DNA of 59,753 bases from UHGV virus genome UHGV-0209512, one strand, 5' to 3'. Of this stretch, positions 21,606 through 46,400 are shown piece after piece. Both the position numbers and the translations under genes were made by a program. The stretch is from a virus. The notes beneath the pieces are model-generated. The model did no database searches. It saw only the letters and a program-made list of their open reading frames with translations, and was not told the DNA's origin. The stretch's first letter is position 1; each line of letters begins with the position of its first letter.

Positions 21606-22028
21606 ATGATTAAACACGTCAAGCAACCAACTTTAAATACATGCGTTTCTGCGTGTTTGGCAATGATCCTTAATAAACCTGTTGAGAAGGTGATTGAGGA
21701 ATTTCATGATCGATATTACAACAACTGGGAAATAACAATTTCCGAATATTTAGTACAAAACAATGTTGACCACATCCGTTCTGTAGGCGGTGGGCGTGAA
21801 ACTATATACATGGGCGGTTTGTTTTTGTGTACTGTCCCAAGTCTGAATGTTCCTGGAGCACTGCATCAGGTTGTGATCGATACAACTAATCACAAGTTTA
21901 TTGTACATGACCCAATTAAAGGTTGGGAAGGTAAAAAGTTCTATGTTGGTCCGGACCAAGATCCTGAACAGCCAGGAGCATTTATCATTCATACTTGGGT
22001 TAAAGACGTTGAGATTGTACTTAATTAA
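21606..22028 (+). CDS. Putative papain-like cysteine peptidase (C39-like)
   Basis: N-terminal QPTLNTCVSACLAMIL (Gln...Cys) and later HQVVIDTTNHKFIVHDP resemble the Cys/His arrangement of C39-type peptidase domains; by eye. Confidence 0.4.
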   Translation: MIKHVKQPTLNTCVSACLAMILNKPVEKVIEEFHDRYYNNWEITISEYLVQNNVDHIRSVGGGRETIYMGGLFLCTVPSLNVPGALHQVVIDTTNHKFIVHDPIKGWEGKKFYVGPDQDPEQPGAFIIHTWVKDVEIVLN

Positions 22029-22090
22029 AACCCTTGCTATCAGATAACCCTTCATTGTATTGTGTACCCATCGAATAAGAGGGGTACACA

Positions 22091-22276
22091 ATGACCAAAC
22101 TATACGCCGGATTGTTTTTATTTGCGACGTTAATGTTCGCTGGACTTTATACCTATACAGTAGTCGAACAACCTTCCACGGTTATCCGAATCTTTGCAAG
22201 TACAGGACTGTGCATCTGTCTTATTCTGTTTGTTTTATGTATTGTTATTATCCAAGACCAAAGGAAAATTAAATGA
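22091..22276 (+). CDS. Small membrane protein (61 aa, two hydrophobic helices)
   Basis: LYAGLFLFATLMFAGLY and GLCICLILFVLCIVII hydrophobic segments. Confidence 0.45.
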   Translation: MTKLYAGLFLFATLMFAGLYTYTVVEQPSTVIRIFASTGLCICLILFVLCIVIIQDQRKIK

Positions 22277-22737
22277 CAACCATTGCTTACGATGGAAAAG
22301 TATTAGCTGCGGACCGTGGAGTTATGCGCGGGGAAGTTGTGACTGCATATAAGAAAGTTCACAGCGTAAATGGGCATCGTGGACGCTTCTTGCTGGGCTT
22401 GTGCGGTCTGACTGCATTTACTGATCAGGTATTGCGTTATTTTAATAGCCCGGAACCTGTTAAGTTCCCTGATATTAAACTTTACAGCAAAGATGATGAT
22501 TACGGGCAAACTTGCGGTCTTGCGGTTACTCCGGAAGGCACTTGCCATTTTATTTACAATGATGGTACGTTGAGCGAGCCTATGCTGGACGGCTGGGGGT
22601 CGGATGGTAGCGGTTGTGTGTTTGCTGCGGGAGCTCTGGCTGCTGGTGCAAGCGCACGCGAAGCTATCGAGCTAGCAATCAAGCATACTACATGTGCATT
22701 TCTTGGCGTTGATACAATATCGTTTGAGGGTTTTTAA
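22273..22737 (+). CDS. HslV/proteasome beta-like N-terminal-nucleophile peptidase homolog
   Basis: Starts M-TTIAYDGKVLAAD (Thr right after Met, as in HslV TTIVSV); C-terminal GSDGSGCVFAAGALAAGASAREAIELAIKHTTCAFLGVDTISFE parallels HslV GSGGPYAQAAARALL...; AAGGAAA RBS. Confidence 0.5.
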   Translation: MTTIAYDGKVLAADRGVMRGEVVTAYKKVHSVNGHRGRFLLGLCGLTAFTDQVLRYFNSPEPVKFPDIKLYSKDDDYGQTCGLAVTPEGTCHFIYNDGTLSEPMLDGWGSDGSGCVFAAGALAAGASAREAIELAIKHTTCAFLGVDTISFEGF

Positions 22738-22998
22738 ATGACTACATTCAGTCACCTGATCCCACCTGCTTATCACAGCAAGGTAGTTGACCACGGGACG
22801 CATGTTGTAATTGGTGGCGAAATCTTTATCACCGATAACGAGGAAATCGCCATTGCAATTATTGACAGCACTCAGCATGACTTTATGGTTATCCTGCAAC
22901 ACGAACCCGATAACTTCACTTTTTACTCCAGCTACGGGGTCGATAAAGGTGGAAAAAGCCTTGTTAGCTGCTACATTAGCGAGTGGTTTGACGGGTAA
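22738..22998 (+). CDS. Hypothetical protein (86 aa)
   Basis: ORF in operon; no motif. Confidence 0.45.
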   Translation: MTTFSHLIPPAYHSKVVDHGTHVVIGGEIFITDNEEIAIAIIDSTQHDFMVILQHEPDNFTFYSSYGVDKGGKSLVSCYISEWFDG

Positions 22999-23080
22999 TC
23001 TTCTTAGATCAATTCTCCTTGCGCCGTATCAAGTTTCTCTGTTACCCTTGAGTGGTTCATGTCAAGCGGAGGAACTCGAT

Positions 23081-23518
23081 ATGGCGCTTCAACCTCGTGG
23101 TATTCGTAACAACAATCCAGGTAACATTCGCTGGGGTGATAATTGGCAGGGATTGGTCCCTGTTGATAAGCGGACCGACAAATCTTTTGCACAATTTACG
23201 CAACCGATCTACGGCATCCGCGCTCTGGCGAAAGTCCTGACAAACTACACCAAACGTGAAGGCTTGCCCAATGTGGGTAAGAAAAACATCGACACTGTAC
23301 GTGAAATTATCTCTCGCTGGGCCCCGCCTAACGAAAACGATACGGAAGCGTATATTCGTTCTGTTGCCAAAGCAATTGGTGTTGAACCTAACGATCCAAT
23401 CAATGTCTTCGACAAGACGATAATGTCAGGTTTGGTAAAAGCAATCATTCGTCATGAAAATGGCATGATGCCCTACACGGACGACGTAATCAACCGAGCT
23501 ATTGCAATGGTAATTTAA
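23081..23518 (+). CDS. Conserved phage protein with RNNNPGNIR motif; candidate endolysin by context only
   Basis: ORF 22811..23518 trimmed to ATG 23081 preceded by GGAGGA; lies directly upstream of holin-like and spanin genes; enzymatic family not recognised. Confidence 0.4.
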   Translation: MALQPRGIRNNNPGNIRWGDNWQGLVPVDKRTDKSFAQFTQPIYGIRALAKVLTNYTKREGLPNVGKKNIDTVREIISRWAPPNENDTEAYIRSVAKAIGVEPNDPINVFDKTIMSGLVKAIIRHENGMMPYTDDVINRAIAMVI

Positions 23519-23523
23519 CTGAT

Positions 23524-23545
23524 GGGGCGTCAGCCCCTTTTTATT
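23524..23545 (+). terminator. Short rho-independent terminator GGGGC-GTCA-GCCCC + TTTTT
   Basis: 5-bp GC stem, 4-nt loop, T-run; between the 145-aa gene and the holin-like gene. Confidence 0.45.
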
Positions 23546-23554
23546 GGAGGGAAC

Positions 23555-23899
23555 ATGTTCAACTCATCGAACGAACATTGGGCAGTTCTAGCGGGGTTTG
23601 CTCTGATTTCCCTCATTGGGGGATCTCTCGGTTACGTCATGCGTACAATTGACGCTGGTAAGAAGGTACGGATAAGCATTGCATGTCTTGAAGGCTTATC
23701 CGCCGCGTTCTTTGGCGTTATAATGTATGCAATCTACAGGGAGTTTAATATCAGCCTTTGGTTCGCTTTTGGCCTTGCTGGCCTATTCGCTTGGGCGGGT
23801 TCACGTGCTACGCTAAAAGCTCTAAAGTCGCTTCTAGCATCGCGGACAGGGATCAAACTCGACTCAGAGGACTGCAAACATGAAAATGATTCTAAATAA
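23555..23899 (+). CDS. Holin-like membrane protein (three predicted TM helices, charged C-terminus)
   Basis: ORF 23522..23899 trimmed to ATG 23555 after GGAGGG; three hydrophobic segments; directly upstream of spanin-like genes. Confidence 0.45.
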   Translation: MFNSSNEHWAVLAGFALISLIGGSLGYVMRTIDAGKKVRISIACLEGLSAAFFGVIMYAIYREFNISLWFAFGLAGLFAWAGSRATLKALKSLLASRTGIKLDSEDCKHENDSK

Positions 23900-24356
23900 C
23901 TTCTTCGGCTTTATAAAAGCTAAACCGCGTCTGTTTATCGAGTATTTGATGATCGGCGCGGTAGTGTTTTTATGCGGGGTGGCCGCCTACCTGTGGTCAC
24001 AGAACGAGCTTAACAAATCAAATTTAAGTTTGGCTGAAGAACGTTTAACCGTTGTGGAGAAAGACAATGCAAAGCTGGGCGAGGCTGTTGTATTTCTTGC
24101 TGCACAAAGGGAGAAGGACACGGACTCTTTCAAGAAACTAACTTCTGCAATTCAAGATGAACAACATAACCACAAGTTGCTTCAGGACAAGTTGCAGACA
24201 CTGGAGAAAAGCAATGCTGACGTCAAAGCTTATCTTAACGAGCGTATTCCTGATGATTTGCGCAGGTTGCTCGACGCAGACTCAACCTCCTCCAGCTCCA
24301 CAGATAGTGAAGGTAAGACTACCCGCACATCTACTGGTGGAATGTCGGGAAGTTGA
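23880..24356 (+). CDS. i-spanin-like protein (N-terminal TM helix + coiled coil)
   Basis: TM segment LFIEYLMIGAVVFLCGVAAYLW followed by a heptad-rich charged region. Confidence 0.5.
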   Translation: MKMILNNFFGFIKAKPRLFIEYLMIGAVVFLCGVAAYLWSQNELNKSNLSLAEERLTVVEKDNAKLGEAVVFLAAQREKDTDSFKKLTSAIQDEQHNHKLLQDKLQTLEKSNADVKAYLNERIPDDLRRLLDADSTSSSSTDSEGKTTRTSTGGMSGS

Positions 24357-24519
24357 GAAAATTCCTTTGGTTTACACAAGAGATATTATCCGACGTTTAC
24401 AGGATACAGAAACTGCTCTGACTGAATGTAAGCTAAGGGTTAAGGAAATCATACGCTATGAAGCTGAAAATGTTTCGCTTGATTTTGTAGGATCAAGCAA
24501 TTATATTCAGCCTAAATAG
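24214..24519 (+). CDS. o-spanin-like lipoprotein candidate, overlapping the i-spanin gene in another frame
   Basis: ORF 24157..24519 trimmed to ATG 24214; hydrophobic signal LILTSVFLMICAGCS with Cys, then Pro-rich QPPPAPQ; lipobox is not canonical. Confidence 0.4.
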   Translation: MLTSKLILTSVFLMICAGCSTQTQPPPAPQIVKVRLPAHLLVECREVEKIPLVYTRDIIRRLQDTETALTECKLRVKEIIRYEAENVSLDFVGSSNYIQPK

Positions 24520-24539
24520 CAATAAGAAGGGGAGCTTCC

Positions 24540-25097
24540 ATGAACGGGGCAAGTCAAGAGCAATATGATCGTGACTGGACGAACTATATCCAGTATGCAA
24601 ATAGCTTGTCCGCTGACGAGATGGCAATACGTGACAAAGTTGTTGCTGAGTATATGTTCGACTACAATTGGACTAACGCTTGCATGAGATGCGGGTTCAA
24701 TGCTATGTTTGCACAGGAGCTTGGCCAACGCTTTGCCACGGACTGTTACGTTCGATGGAAGCTCAAGGAGATTGAAAGATCCCGTGTTCAACGTACTTCT
24801 GAGCAAGCTAACATTGAAGCAGACCTAGAGCGTCAGCATATCATTGAAGCATTAAAACGTGAAGCTCATTATACAGGACCGGGATCTTCTCAAGCTGCTA
24901 GAGTAGCCGCATTGGGCAAGCTTGCACAAATTTATGATTTGGATGCGCCCAAGAAGGCTAAAATTGATGTTACTAACAGAGGCGGCGTAATGATAGTCCC
25001 TGCTGTAGCAAATATTGACGAATGGGAAAAAACTGCATCCGAGTCTCAACAACGACTAGTTAAAGAGACTGAAGATGGAGCTAAACCGACAACCTGA
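24540..25097 (+). CDS. Putative terminase small subunit
   Basis: 185-aa ORF immediately upstream of and overlapping the large terminase gene; assignment by position. Confidence 0.45.
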   Translation: MNGASQEQYDRDWTNYIQYANSLSADEMAIRDKVVAEYMFDYNWTNACMRCGFNAMFAQELGQRFATDCYVRWKLKEIERSRVQRTSEQANIEADLERQHIIEALKREAHYTGPGSSQAARVAALGKLAQIYDLDAPKKAKIDVTNRGGVMIVPAVANIDEWEKTASESQQRLVKETEDGAKPTT

Positions 25098-26634
25098 TAA
25101 CATGCCGCGAGTAGTCTGGAAGCCACATCCAGGTTCACAGACGCTCGCTTTATCCTGCCCTGCTGATATCATTTTATACCACGGTACTCGCGGTCCTGGA
25201 AAGACGGACTGCCAGCTTATGCGTTTCCGTAAGAATGTTGGCGTAGGGTACGGTAAATTCTGGAAGGGTATTATATTCGATCGTGAATATAAAAACCTTG
25301 ATGACCTTGTAACCAAATCACAGCGTTGGTTCCCTGAATTTAAAGATGGTGCTAAATTCCTTAGCTCTAAGTCTGATTATAAATGGGTTTGGCCCACTGG
25401 GGAAGAATTGCTGTTCCGTGTTGCTTGCAAAGAAAAGGATTATTGGTCCTATCATGGTCACGAATACCCGTTTATCGGATGGAACGAATTAACAAAGTAT
25501 CCGGACGGGCGTTTGTTTGAAGCAATGATGTCCTGTAACCGTTCATCATTCCTACCAGAAGATAATCCAATTATCAATCCGGACGGTACTGTTACATATT
25601 TACCAGACATTCCTCTGGAAGTGTTTGCTACCAGTAACCCGTTTGGTGCGGGTCATAACTGGGTTAAGAAACGCTTCATTGACGCTGCACCGATGGGTAA
25701 GATACTCAGGAAAACTACGCGAGTGTTTAACCCGCGGACGCAGAAAGAGGAAGATGTGGTTACGACGCAATGCCATATCTTCGGATCTTATCGTGAGAAC
25801 AAAAACCTAAGTCCGAAATATATTGCAGAACTTATGTCTATCACAGACCCGAATAAACGCGCCGCATGGTTGGGCGGTAGCTGGGACATCACCTCCGGTG
25901 GTATGTTCGATGATCTGTGGCGTAGCACTGTTCATAAAATACGCCCATTCCCAATTCCTTCAAGCTGGAAGATTACACGTTCTTTCGACTGGGGTTCTTC
26001 AAAACCATTCTCCGTTGGCTGGTGGGCTATTAGTGATGGTTCGGATGTTGTACGTGAGGATGGTACTACATTCTCTACTGTACGCGGTGACTTGTTCCGT
26101 ATTAACGAATGGTACGGCACTAACGGTAAAACAAACGAAGGTCTACATTTGCTGGACTCAGAGATTGCAAGCGGTATACTGGAGCGGGAATTGGCCTGGG
26201 GTATACACGACCGTGTAGTTCCTGGACCTGCGGATAACTCTATTTGGGATCTGGAGAACAATAACTCTACCGCCGCAACAATGGCGAAGAAAATCCGTCT
26301 TAACGGCAAGCTGTATAACGGTATCCATTGGAAGAGAAGTGATAAATCTGCTGGGTCGCGTAAACGCGGATGGCAGAAAATGCGTGAGTTTCTTAAAGCT
26401 GCATTGCGGGAAGATGCAAACGGTAAACCTTTGCCGGGACCACGTGAAAATCCAGCAATGTATGTTTTCGATAACTGCAATTATTTCTTTGAACTGGTTC
26501 CAAGTCTCCCGCGCGATGAAGTAGATCAGGATGACGTTGATACGGAATGTGAAGACCATATGGGCGATGAAGTACGTTATATGGTTCTGGATCAAGCTGT
26601 TTATACAGGTGTTGGTAAAACTATCGGTATTTAA
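25075..26634 (+). CDS. Terminase large subunit
   Basis: 519 aa; N-terminal ATPase P-loop-like HGTRGPGKT; C-terminal acidic nuclease-like region; followed by portal gene. Confidence 0.75.
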   Translation: MELNRQPDNMPRVVWKPHPGSQTLALSCPADIILYHGTRGPGKTDCQLMRFRKNVGVGYGKFWKGIIFDREYKNLDDLVTKSQRWFPEFKDGAKFLSSKSDYKWVWPTGEELLFRVACKEKDYWSYHGHEYPFIGWNELTKYPDGRLFEAMMSCNRSSFLPEDNPIINPDGTVTYLPDIPLEVFATSNPFGAGHNWVKKRFIDAAPMGKILRKTTRVFNPRTQKEEDVVTTQCHIFGSYRENKNLSPKYIAELMSITDPNKRAAWLGGSWDITSGGMFDDLWRSTVHKIRPFPIPSSWKITRSFDWGSSKPFSVGWWAISDGSDVVREDGTTFSTVRGDLFRINEWYGTNGKTNEGLHLLDSEIASGILERELAWGIHDRVVPGPADNSIWDLENNNSTAATMAKKIRLNGKLYNGIHWKRSDKSAGSRKRGWQKMREFLKAALREDANGKPLPGPRENPAMYVFDNCNYFFELVPSLPRDEVDQDDVDTECEDHMGDEVRYMVLDQAVYTGVGKTIGI

Positions 26635-38700: not shown

Positions 38701-39284
38701 TGTTATTCAGTCCATTTAGCGACGAGCTTCTTTCTGCAATGGAGCAACCAAACGTCGGTTTGGTGTTAGCAGCGGAAATAAACTTCCCATCTGGTGTTAC
38801 TCGCGTTCATACAGGAACCGGAACCGTTATTATCAATGGTCAAACATTCCTGGGCGTAGGTACACTTGGGGATGTTGGATCTGTTACTGAAGAAAACAGC
38901 ACAAGCTCCAGCACAATGTCCATGGCGCTTAGCGGGCTGGATATGAGCCTTGTTGGTGAAACTTTAAACGAAGAAGTTATCGGATGTGATGTTGTGTGCT
39001 ATCTAGCTGTAATGAACGATCGAGGTGTTGTTACTGGTGCCAACGTATTATTTGAAGGGTTTATTACAGACACATCCTTACAAGCTGGTCAACAAAACGC
39101 ATTGAGCTATGTTATTGCCAACGTATTTGAACGTTGGTCGCAAGGTTTACCGGATCGTTACACGGATGAAAGCCAACAACGTTTACATCCAGGCGATCGC
39201 TTTTTTAGATATGTTGCGCAAATGGCGGAACGTTCAATCTTTTGGGGGAGTAAAAAAGATGCGCCAGGGTTCACCTATGAGTAA
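38700..39284 (+). CDS. Minor tail protein (lambda L-like position)
   Basis: 194-aa ORF; tail-tip module order. Confidence 0.45.
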   Translation: MLFSPFSDELLSAMEQPNVGLVLAAEINFPSGVTRVHTGTGTVIINGQTFLGVGTLGDVGSVTEENSTSSSTMSMALSGLDMSLVGETLNEEVIGCDVVCYLAVMNDRGVVTGANVLFEGFITDTSLQAGQQNALSYVIANVFERWSQGLPDRYTDESQQRLHPGDRFFRYVAQMAERSIFWGSKKDAPGFTYE

Positions 39285-39693
39285 GCTGCCGGGCTGGCAG
39301 ACACGTTTATTAACCACAGTAAAGGAGTTGTCATCGACTCCTTTTTCTTGGGGTGAAAATGATTGCTGCACGTTTGCGGCTAAATGTGTTGATGCTCAAT
39401 ACGGTACAACTATCTATGATGAGATAGCAGGTAAATATAGCACAGAGCTTGGAAGCAAGAGATTTTCAATTGAAAAAGTTGGAACAGCTTATCTTCCAAC
39501 TTTGCTGGATGCTTATTTGAGCGAACGGGTTGATAAAAATTATGCGCAAAGAGGCGATGTGGTTACATTTAAGGGAGCTTTAGGCTTAACTGCTGGCATA
39601 TTATGGACGGGATATGTATGGGCCATGGGCCCAAACGGTGTGGAAACGTTCCCGCTTAATAAGATCGAAATTACGGATATTTGGAGGGTCTAA
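39259..39693 (+). CDS. Tail assembly protein with NlpC/P60-like cysteine motif (lambda K-like position)
   Basis: ORF 39109..39693 trimmed to ATG 39259 after GGGGGAG; WGENDCCTFAA suggests a Cys active site. Confidence 0.45.
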   Translation: MRQGSPMSKLPGWQTRLLTTVKELSSTPFSWGENDCCTFAAKCVDAQYGTTIYDEIAGKYSTELGSKRFSIEKVGTAYLPTLLDAYLSERVDKNYAQRGDVVTFKGALGLTAGILWTGYVWAMGPNGVETFPLNKIEITDIWRV

Positions 39694-43331: not shown

Positions 43332-43456
43332 TATGGACTCCAACAATGTGGTTAAAGATGATAGACAATATTGTTTTATATTCTAATTTAATTTACCATA
43401 TTTGTATGCCATAGTGCATCCATTAATTGATCAACTCTGCGAGACAAGAGGTAAAA

Positions 43457-46400
43457 ATGGCAACTCGTTTATATGGTGTTTTGCTTGATGGCTTAAAAAA
43501 ACCAATCGTTAATGCGACGGTTGTGCTCTTAGCAAAAGGGAACACAATAACCGTCCTTAACGGTAGCGAAGCAATTTTTAAGACTGACGCTCAGGGTGCT
43601 TATAATGTCACCGTACAGTCCGGCTATTATAAAGTGATTATAGGTCCACAAGGTATCGAACCTTATAAAGCTGGGGAAATTGCAATATATGCAGATAGCC
43701 CGGAAGGATCTCTTAACAGTTATTTAGTTAACTGGGCGGAAGAAGACTTAACGCCTGAAGTTATTAAACAAGTTAAAGAGCTGGTAGCAGTCTCAGAAGA
43801 GTACGCTCTCCAGGCTGGAAGATCCGCTGCTGCTGCTCAATCTGATGCTACCGATGCACGCAATAGTAAAGCTTCCGCTGCTCAATCCGCCTCGGACGCG
43901 CTTGTGTATAAAAACGACTCTAAAGCTAATGCTGACGCCGCTAAACAGGCACAAGCAGGGGCTGCGGGGTCTGCCAACACCGCCAATACAGCTTTAACCA
44001 CAATTCAGGGCATTCAAAAGGATGTTACAGCGTCCAAGGACCGCGCCGTGACTGCGGAAACCAATGCTAAATCCAGCGAGAATGTGGCTACGCAAGCTAA
44101 AACAGAGGCTGTGACTGCTAAAGATCAAGCTGTAGCGGCTAAGGACAAAGCCAAAGAATATGTAGATAGTATTCAACCTGCAAACTTTGTCGTCAAGTCT
44201 CAGAATTTAGCAGATTTACCTGATAAGACTAGATCGAGAAATAATCTCTCTGCAATGTTAGACTCTAAAGTAGGTCTTGATGCTACTACTGACCTAAACA
44301 GTCTCAACGGTGTAAAGGCTGGGTTTTACTATCAACCAATGTCAGCTAACGCTAAACCTGAACTGAACTACCCCATTGCTTTGGCTGGAGCACTTCTGGT
44401 AATCAAGACAGGTGCTAACACAGAATACTCCTGCAAGCAAGTTTATAGTCTCTATAACAATCCCAATGTAACATACTCAAGAGTTCTTAACGCATCTACT
44501 GGTCCGAATGCGCCTTGGTCTGAATGGAGAAAACATACAGCTTTGGAAAGGGTTGAAGAGGGTCTTTCTACAACTTACATGTACTCCATCTACTCTTTAG
44601 GCTCTCCTAGACTTCAAGTAAATACGGAGGGTTTATGGGGATGTAGTGATGGTACTAGATGGATCCCATTAGCTGTTGCACAAGGTGGTACTGGTGCAAC
44701 TACTATTGAGGATGCCAAAACGAATCTACAAATCCCTGAGGGTGGATTAACAAAAGCCATGTACTTGCAAGCGCCAAAAGGTGCCGAAGATGGTAAATAC
44801 TACCCTGTCATAATCGACGTCTCAGGAATTGAAGGTAACGGAAACCTTACGTGCCCTGTTGATATAAAAACAGCAGGACGTGTATCATCCGATCCGATGA
44901 ATAGCAATACATTTAGCGGGTATTTTAGATGTGGTGGCTGGACTGATACCAAAGATATAGCCTGCGGATCATTTATTGCCTATGATAAAAATGAGCTAGG
45001 GATACTCTGCCTTAAAGTTTCGCAGAAAGATTATCCGCAATATGTAGCGTTCTATATCCATAAAGCCGCTTTCCCGATATTATTGCAAACAGGCTATAAA
45101 GCGCGGGTTATTGTACCAACAGAAGATTATGCGATCGGCACAAACGGCGTCAAATATAAATTTGGTGTATCAACGTCAGAAGAGGGTAATGTCGAGAACG
45201 CAGTTAAAAATGCTCTCGATTTTACTGGCGGAGAAAGCGGGTTTTATAGCAACCTTCCGTTCAGACAAGGGGTGTCAGAAAGGATTGCATTAACAAATGG
45301 CCTGAGTTTTGATAAAAATTTTACCGTCACTATTCCTATATTTGTAAACAATGGTCAGATTAAAGCAACACAATCTTTCACCACGTATGGTACGGACGCT
45401 GCAAACAGAACATTTGTTTCTCAAAGATTACAATCCGAAGGAGGTCCGGTTGTCGATCAAACCGAACTAAGGGCTGCTAATGCTTCTGGTGAAATTGTTG
45501 TCAGAGATACAAATAATTCAAGTAATTCCAAGTGGTTTTCTTTTAAACTTGATGGAACATTTGATGCTTATCATGGGTTAACTCTCCGCACAGGGCATAA
45601 CTGGACTATCCAACATACAGATAACGTAAACAAGTTTAAGCCAATAGCAGGGAGCGCAGGCGGTCCTGACGGAACAATGGTTGTTGGCGGGTTCCATGCT
45701 CAATTTAGCGGTAATTACGTCACACAATTCGCCGGTCGCAACTCCAAATTTTGGGCAAGAAGCTTTGAGGCTGGTGTTGATAAGGGATGGAAACAACTAT
45801 TAACAGTAGACGATCTAAATTCAGCAACCGATCTTGCTGTCAGATCATTAACCACATCTAACCCGGTAAAATCCGGTGGAGGGCGAATTGATGTCCTTGG
45901 AAGCACGTCAGACTATAGCAAAATGGATTGCTTTGTACGTGGGTTTGATAGCACCGGTAATTCTCTCGCGTGGGCGTTGGGTTCATCAGTCGGCGTAAGT
46001 AAGATGCTATCGCTAAAAAATTTCTTTAGCGGAGCTGAGATACTGCTAAATGGCAGTGATGGAGCAGTTCAACTCAAAACAGGTACTGTTGGAGGAGCCG
46101 CTGCGCAAGCAATTACTATAAATAAAGATGAAGTTTATTCAACTGTCAATTTTTCTATTACAAAAGAAGGTAAACGGTTCTCTATAGAAAATAGTGCCAA
46201 CTCTGAGTTATCGTTTAATATGAGGGTATGGGGATCCAGTACCCGTCAAAACGTTTTTGAGGTTGGAACGTCTGCTGCGTATTTGTTCTATGCTCAAAAA
46301 ACATCACAGGGACAACTGTTTGATGTAAACGGTAATATTAACTGTGTAACACTTAACCAATCATCGGACCGAAGACTTAAAGAGAATATCAATGTCATTG

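Follow-up and report, generated by a model that had tools for sequence, protein, structure and literature searches.

Which enzyme opens the cell wall for the phage whose DNA is UHGV virus genome UHGV-0209512 (59,753 nucleotides (nt) of one strand; this whole stretch is called the window below)? The question is posed by a compact set of genes at 23081-24519: a holin-like gene and two overlapping spanin-like genes, preceded by a gene for a protein of 145 amino acids (aa) that an original prediction, made from the letters of the sequence, put forward as the only candidate endolysin and could not assign to a muralytic family. The answer argued for here is that the lysis cassette in the window is very probably of the canonical three-step kind, in a Seuratvirus-like coliphage, and that the 145-aa protein is its soluble endolysin, of the PHA02564/Enc34 type. 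What was originally observed is confirmed; what was made of the observations is supported in part. The cassette is ordinary and already known, and publications of 2020-2022 have overtaken the notion that the endolysin cannot be placed or might have a new fold. The sole element of the cassette for which no description was found is a hairpin in the leader of the endolysin mRNA, a modest and testable lead.

The 145-aa protein and its family

The gene (23081-23518, + strand) starts with an ATG that is preceded, 8 nt upstream, by the Shine-Dalgarno (SD) sequence GGAGGA (23068-23073). It encodes a 16-kDa protein with a predicted all-helical glycosidase domain of PHA02564/Enc34 type, and the motif RNNNPGNIR, which had drawn attention to it, lies at residues 9-17. 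A profile search, proposed along with the original prediction, answers differently according to the collection consulted. Pfam and NCBIfam return 0 matches, and there is none to the classical muralytic Pfam families (glycoside hydrolase (GH) families GH19/22/23/24/25/73/108, amidase_2/3, peptidase M15/M23, NlpC/P60, CHAP); this explains the earlier difficulty. PHROGs and the Protein Data Bank (PDB) do place the protein: it matches phrog_873, 'endolysin' (E 1.6e-62), and when the PDB is searched by sequence, residues 5-130 align with 7Q47 (E 3.9e-33). That entry is the catalytic domain of ORF39, the endolysin of Hafnia phage Enc34, which belongs to CDD family PHA02564 and whose crystal structure is published at 1.6 Å (Cernooka et al. 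2022, PMC8943055); the all-helical fold modelled for the 145-aa protein is superposable on it. Membership in the family and the predicted fold are established directly by these comparisons. The fold remains "unfamiliar" in that it is unlike those of classical lysozymes, amidases and peptidases, but it is not a fold awaiting its first placement.

The Enc34 work also provides candidates for a catalytic apparatus: Glu131 is the proposed catalytic residue, and Trp79 and Tyr95 are conserved as in GH73 and GH23 enzymes (PMC8943055). Their equivalents in the 145-aa protein are Glu126 (in HENG), Trp80 (in RWAPP) and Tyr91, and all three are invariant across 32 diverse homologues aligned down to 51% identity, in which the N-terminal RGIRNNNPGNI motif is mostly invariant too. 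Conservation of these triad positions is directly established; Glu126 is the putative catalytic residue, with Trp80 and Tyr91 as its putative partners. The muralytic activity of homologues is established in the literature: Enc34 ORF39deltaC clears outer membrane-permeabilised E. coli, P. aeruginosa and H. alvei in turbidity-reduction assays (PMC8943055), and M4LysdeltaTMD, from Salmonella phage BSPM4, breaks down purified peptidoglycan and takes N-acetylglucosamine (GlcNAc) off muropeptides, which indicates an N-acetylglucosaminidase (PMC7143992). M4Lys is the only member of the family with muropeptide analysis, by liquid chromatography-mass spectrometry (PMC7143992); by likeness to it, the 145-aa enzyme would most probably be an N-acetylglucosaminidase as well.

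Both of these biochemically characterised proteins are held in the membrane by a C-terminal transmembrane (TM) domain. The 145-aa protein has no such domain: it ends 15-20 residues past HENG, with no hydrophobic segment at either end. Its N-terminus, MALQPRGIRNNNPGN, does not resemble a signal-anchor-release (SAR) sequence, no 19-residue window in the protein reaches a Kyte-Doolittle (KD) hydropathy of 1.4 or more, and signal sequence, SAR sequence and TM segment are all absent. Since the C-terminal membrane domain is missing, the protein appears to be the commoner soluble, holin-dependent form. How much commoner can be judged from 74 homologues in IMG/VR: 61 are short and TM-less, 7 (of 214-235 aa) carry a C-terminal TM segment, and 4 exceed 300 aa. 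The two members with published biochemistry thus belong to the minority TM-tethered form, and for the soluble form of ~145 aa the literature yielded no assay in vitro.

With more than 5,100 clusters at E <= 1e-3 and 360 phage records at E <= 1e-20, this is a large family. Neither Pfam nor NCBIfam has a model for it yet. Annotation that relies on Pfam, or on sequence by itself, consequently perpetuates names such as 'structural protein P5', 'virion protein' and 'hypothetical' for its members.

(A technical note on the start of the gene: a longer, 235-aa open reading frame (ORF) opening with TTG at 22811 was considered as the endolysin and rejected. It overlaps, in another frame, a conserved 86-aa upstream gene; homologues begin M-x(1-9)-RGIRN; and the ~75 nt before ATG 23081 are conserved without a third-position pattern and fold as RNA.)

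The lysis cassette and competing assignments

The genes that follow are those of the original description. The holin gene (23555-23899, + strand; 114 aa) starts 37 nt past the endolysin stop. Its product, described earlier as three-TM and holin-like, does have three hydrophobic segments and matches PF16083 (LydA holin; 38.8 bits, gathering score 28.4) and phrog_785 (E 4.9e-24). It ends in a charged C-terminal tail, KALKSLLASRTGIKLDSEDCKHENDSK. Profile score, three TM segments, charged tail and adjacency to the endolysin together assign it to the LydA family and to class I among holins; the weakness of the third hydrophobic segment (KD 1.42) counts against the assignment. The longest ORF opens 33 nt earlier, at ATG 23522 (125 aa). 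That codon is ACG in the related phages WildeMaa and STP-SP5, and a strong SD sequence, GGAGGG, precedes ATG 23555, so the holin most likely has 114 aa and its start is probably ATG 23555. (The 125-aa product was also considered as a dual-start antiholin, and rejected on account of the ACG codon of WildeMaa and STP-SP5.)

A terminator-like hairpin (23524-23545, + strand) occupies the gap from the endolysin stop to the holin SD: GGGGC-GUCA-GCCCC, then a U-run, UUUUUAUU. The stem (23524-23537) is kept in WildeMaa and STP-SP5, with the loop altered (to GTTA and TTCG). The element was found by a consensus scan that yielded 5 terminator-like sites against 4.2 expected, and its folding z of -0.87 is not significant alone. 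Possibly it acts as a partial terminator, or on mRNA stability, and in this way sets the expression of the endolysin apart from that of the holin.

The spanin genes had been described as an i-spanin-like gene with an o-spanin-like gene starting inside it, in another frame, and reaching beyond it, and so they are. Of the 158 aa encoded by the i-spanin gene (23880-24356, + strand), about residues 17-39 form an N-terminal TM segment, and the periplasmic part is long and probably helical. The o-spanin gene (24214-24519, + strand) is in the +1 frame, opening 143 nt ahead of the i-spanin stop and ending 163 nt past it; it encodes a 101-aa prelipoprotein whose signal, MLTSKLILTSVFLMICAG, is followed by the lipobox cysteine (ICAG-C), with Ser rather than Asp at +2 and a mature part that begins proline-rich. 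Profiles agree: the o-spanin matches PF23793 LysC (44.9 bits, cut-off 27), NF038368 P2_Rz1 (28.6 bits, cut-off 27) and phrog_456 (E 1.1e-14), while the i-spanin matches phrog_5975 (E 8e-55) and phrog_89, 'Rz-like spanin' (E 2.8e-11). On the debit side, the i-spanin scores 32.3 bits with TIGR03495 LysB, under the equivalog cut-off of 92.75; phrog_89 and the N-terminal TM segment mark it as Rz-like, though not a LysB equivalog. The pair has, from its sequences, the two-component, overlapped architecture of P2 LysB/LysC type. Two-component spanins come in three layouts, of which "overlapped" is the most frequent, with 228 of 528 systems (Kongari et al., PMC6139136). A 120-aa o-spanin start at 24157 (ORF 24157-24519) was set aside for ATG 24214, which has an SD sequence and a proper lipoprotein signal. 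CSP1, CSP1C and WildeMaa all keep the full 101-aa ORF, and in STP-SP5 the part of the frame that was read holds an equivalent ORF with a lipobox. In database records the o-spanin is annotated only as a fragment without lipobox, of 50 aa in CSP1 and CSP1C (KY982929.1, 2568-2720, for CSP1) and of 61 aa in WildeMaa (MZ501112.1, 2835-3020); the ORF for the full 101-aa lipoprotein is intact in all.

One can accordingly sketch how lysis would proceed. Lacking an export signal or a membrane anchor, the soluble endolysin would wait in the cytoplasm. The three-TM LydA-family holin would accumulate in the inner membrane, trigger, and open holes (presumably large holes rather than pinholes) that release the endolysin to the wall. 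A complex of the i-spanin, anchored in the inner membrane, and the o-spanin, an outer-membrane lipoprotein, would then fuse the inner and outer membranes, if the two proteins function as their likeness to known spanins suggests.

The surroundings are those of a well-represented group of phages. Over 22000-25200 the window is 92-98% identical in nucleotide sequence to coliphages of ~55-64 kb (ECP2304, phiG7, CSP1/CSP1C, Greed, slur01, WildeMaa), which, where their records have a taxonomy line, belong to Queuovirinae, genus Seuratvirus; several of them annotate the same four genes as lysis genes. The window phage is very probably a Seuratvirus-like (Queuovirinae) siphophage of E. coli. The lysis genes close a rightward block of small genes, and the small and large terminase genes (24540 and 25075) follow directly downstream. 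Three genes upstream of the endolysin, a 61-aa protein with two hydrophobic segments (22091-22276, + strand) is conserved in all relatives examined; so near the lysis cassette, it could be a lysis regulator. Just upstream of the cassette there are also two small, putatively peptidase-like genes (21606-22028 and 22273-22737, + strand): one, HslV/proteasome-like, encodes 154 aa (phrog_1040, E 5.6e-33; Pfam Proteasome below cut-off), and the other encodes 140 aa that resemble the N-terminus of Peptidase_C39 weakly, below threshold. In one relative's record (PQ202980.1, Escherichia phage CSP1C, 2424-4852) the product names around the cassette appear displaced by one gene: the 145-aa enzyme is called 'hypothetical protein', the holin ORF 'endolysin', the i-spanin 'holin' and the 86-aa ORF 'HslV'.

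Phage CSP1 is the relative for which function has been approached by experiment. Across the region it is 97.4% identical to the window in nucleotide sequence; its endolysin differs at V28A only, its holin at S24A only, and its i-spanin at four residues. The CSP1 endolysin, CSP1_091, and its class I three-TM holin, CSP1_092, have been cloned and co-expressed in E. coli as a lytic module (Kim & Ryu 2025, PMC13577005). The lysis that results is suppressed by antiholin genes and restored by dinitrophenol (DNP); the holin interacts with the antiholin candidate; and suppression is broken by overexpressing the holin, not by overexpressing the endolysin (PMC13577005). (These locus numbers differ from those of GenBank KY982929.1, and were equated with the 145-aa protein and the holin by gene order and the paper's description.)

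That the 145-aa protein is the endolysin is supported by PHROGs, by the PDB match, by the activity of its homologues and by its position. What can be said against it? The bond specificity of the family is unsettled: M4Lys suggests a glucosaminidase with possible endopeptidase activity, and the Enc34 authors relate the fold to GH73 and GH23. The evidence of muralytic activity comes from homologues, and that for the nearly identical CSP1 enzyme from its co-expression with the holin (PMC13577005). Finally, homologues are often named 'structural protein P5', 'virion protein' (or 'putative virion protein') or 'capsid protein' in database records, and the same catalytic domain is found, N-terminal or internal, in large proteins of virion type: phrog_7182 (tail injection transglycosylase), phrog_2276 (tape measure), phrog_992, PDB 9vvp chain L (Gp29, 1295 aa) and 800-aa proteins encoded at IMG/VR loci. 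These carriers comprise tail injection, tape measure and head proteins. (No paper on 9VVP was found.) It follows that the PHA02564/Enc34-type domain serves as an endolysin in some phages and as a virion-associated lysin in others.

The last of these points gives substance to the rival that survives best, although it must be counted very improbable: that the phage carries the 145-aa protein in its virion, as a peptidoglycan hydrolase with which to pierce the wall on entry, the true endolysin being encoded elsewhere or absent. Position speaks against it. The gene is not part of the modules for head and tail morphogenesis; it adjoins holin and spanins, a gene order that is directly established, and this adjacency recurs in lambdoid, Mu-like and Queuovirinae-like genomes. 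Comparison of neighbourhoods finds a homologue in the endolysin slot of unrelated phage types: a Citrobacter lambdoid prophage has the order antiterminator Q, lambda-S-type holin (PF05106), homologue, DUF2514 (Rz-like), terminase; a Cupriavidus Mu-like prophage has its homologue directly after Mor; and in five relatives of ~42-63 kb a PF16083 holin stands immediately downstream of the homologue. (In relatives of ~42-61 kb, with endolysins 61-65% identical, a DUF2514 Rz-like gene lies upstream of the endolysin and an unassigned gene of ~100 aa follows the holin; the order of the cassette is therefore rearranged in the wider group, with endolysin-holin adjacency kept.) The CSP1 protein, a single residue different, works in co-expression as the holin's endolysin partner. 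The "structural" names derive from a provisional CDD label for PHA02564 ('virion protein domain'), not from proteomics. Nor did a Pfam search turn up another lysin: no muralytic Pfam domain is present in the window's tape measure, distal tail, J-like or fibre proteins, and the earlier suggestion of a lysin elsewhere or missing finds no support.

A second rival, less probable again, accepts the enzyme and does without the holin: the endolysin would act on its own, as M4Lys and Enc34 ORF39 do in lysing or intoxicating E. coli, or as a SAR endolysin with a pinholin. Holin independence, however, needs the C-terminal TM domain, and the isolated catalytic domains of M4Lys and Enc34 are harmless in the cytoplasm; the absence of any hydrophobic segment from either end of the 145-aa protein bears on both versions, and in CSP1 it is excess holin, not excess endolysin, that breaks lysis suppression. 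Least credible of all is that the real lysis enzyme is the DUF6950 protein of the tail-tip module (39109-39693; PF22262, E 3.6e-39), the only other product with a peptidoglycan-related annotation in the relatives (CSP1C and CSP1 call it 'peptidoglycan endopeptidase' or 'putative peptidase'): its gene sits ~15 kb from holin and spanins, between distal-tail genes and the J-like tip gene, where lambda gpK-type tail-tip proteins are encoded, it matches no muralytic Pfam family, and the displaced labels of CSP1C suggest that this label may be unreliable too. The 145-aa protein remains very probably the lysis enzyme.

A hairpin over the endolysin ribosome-binding site

When is this enzyme made? The mRNA leader of the endolysin gene folds, as its minimum free energy (MFE) structure, into a hairpin (23021-23087, + strand) that holds both the SD sequence (23068-23073) and the AUG (23081-23083) inside its stem. 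Its two arms, GCGCCGUAUC.AAGUUUCUCUGUU on the 5' side and AAGCGGAGGAACU.CGAUAUGGCGC on the 3' side, pair such that the SD pairs with UUUCUC and the AUG with CGU. The MFE is -35.2 kcal/mol (z -5.15), and 0 of 200 shuffled sequences are as stable. Among 70 SD-preceded ORF starts in the window, that of the endolysin is the most occluded: the mean P(unpaired), averaged over -14..+3 of each start, is 0.06, against a median of 0.51. A ranking of 100-nt windows by raw MFE leaves the leader out of its first 25 places, in which GC-rich regions dominate; it stands out only after control for composition and by the elements that it covers. Rfam has no match over 22700-24700, and hence none for the hairpin.

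Conservation points the same way. Ahead of ATG 23081 lies a spacer of 82 nt whose conservation exceeds that of the flanking coding DNA, and ~75 nt of it are nearly invariant in relatives at 79-98% nucleotide identity, including STP-SP5, whose region is 79% identical. Among 75 IMG/VR homologue loci, strong leader structures (z < -3.5) are confined to Queuovirinae-like contigs of ~57-61 kb and one GC-rich clade. The leaders fall into three families unrelated in sequence: a Seurat-type (including Hafnia phage yong3), a Nonagvirus-type, and a third type in contigs of 42-58 kb. Comparing the families by per-sequence folds and a position-anchored table of pairs, one finds the SD paired in all three and the AUG paired as well in 7 of 8 representative leaders. 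A few substitutions are compensated in the opposite arm, such as C-G to G-C at +5 and, in the anti-SD, U-A to A-U. The sequences cannot be aligned across families, for which reason MAFFT and RNAalifold gave no single consensus structure, and no joint covariation model, over the three. (A last technical note: a pattern scan with AGGAGTANGGCTATGG matched 119 stretches of DNA, mostly by chance, and its matches were filtered afterwards by protein motif.)

A hairpin kept in relatives whose leader sequences are unrelated suggests translational gating, and the burial of both SD and AUG makes it probable that translation of the endolysin is what is gated. How might the gate be opened? Phage T4 offers a precedent in its gene e (lysozyme), whose translational control by an mRNA hairpin was reportedly described by McPheeters and colleagues in 1986; T4 late transcripts of gene e start inside the hairpin, which relieves the occlusion. 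Relief in the present case might come from transcripts of that kind or from processing by RNase III. Weak sigma-70-like matches do occur, TTGCGC-18-TACCCT in the 5' arm of the window's hairpin and TTGACC-17-TAGCCT in the third leader family; they are not listed by a consensus scan, and the pattern does not fit Nonagvirus-type leaders. That such a promoter would yield transcripts without the 5' arm, as in T4 gene e, is speculative. The broader proposal, that phages of ~57-63 kb resembling Queuovirinae gate endolysin synthesis post-transcriptionally and make the enzyme only from a processed or hairpin-internal transcript, as a counterpart of T4 gene e, is offered tentatively, as something that could quite well be so and that we would not yet bet on. 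No description of leader-hairpin gating in these phages was found in the literature. A conserved hairpin that sequesters SD and AUG provides a concrete, testable hypothesis about the timing of endolysin production in Seuratvirus-like phages.

Comparison with known lysis systems

The two closest biochemical models share the catalytic domain with the 145-aa protein and diverge from it in how they are deployed. Enc34 ORF39 is a 26-kDa protein with a C-terminal two-helix membrane domain, toxic alone, and contains extra loop residues (a KKNGVVE insertion) that the 16-kDa protein lacks; its holin gene comes first, whereas in the window the endolysin gene does. In M4Lys of BSPM4, joined to the same PHA02564 catalytic domain, the C-terminal TM domain makes lysis independent of holin and Sec; the 145-aa protein, without one, is paired with a class I holin.

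The other components find their counterparts in phages whose wall-degrading enzymes are of a different kind: the endolysins of P1 and P2 are unrelated to that of the window. The holin reaches the Pfam cut-off for LydA of P1 and has three TM segments, but has no LydB-like antiholin gene next to it. The o-spanin scores above the cut-offs of Pfam LysC and NCBIfam P2_Rz1, and its layout is overlapped like that of P2 LysB/LysC, while the i-spanin remains well under the cut-off for a LysB equivalog.

With CSP1 the correspondence extends to essentially the same genes, endolysin CSP1_091, holin CSP1_092 and spanin CSP1_093. CSP1 has in addition a defined lysis-suppression set: the tail fibre CSP1_020 together with CSP1_021 and CSP1_022. 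The window has close homologues of the latter two, matched by gene order, at 46913-47620 and 47692-48060 (+ strand; 95% nucleotide identity over 46658-50070). CSP1_021 is the holin-binding antiholin candidate, with a glycine-rich hydrophobic segment, and both it and CSP1_022 belong to the published set. The third gene required for suppression, that of the tail fibre, is largely different in the window (43427-46744).

There remains T4, whose gene e likewise has a stable leader hairpin that pairs the ribosome-binding site of a lysis enzyme. The two differ in that gene e has a known mechanism of relief, while the leader in the window has a weak promoter-like match. If the gating is real, it would constitute a previously undescribed counterpart of T4 gene e, in a group of phages whose lysis timing, to judge from lysis suppression in CSP1, is already unusual.

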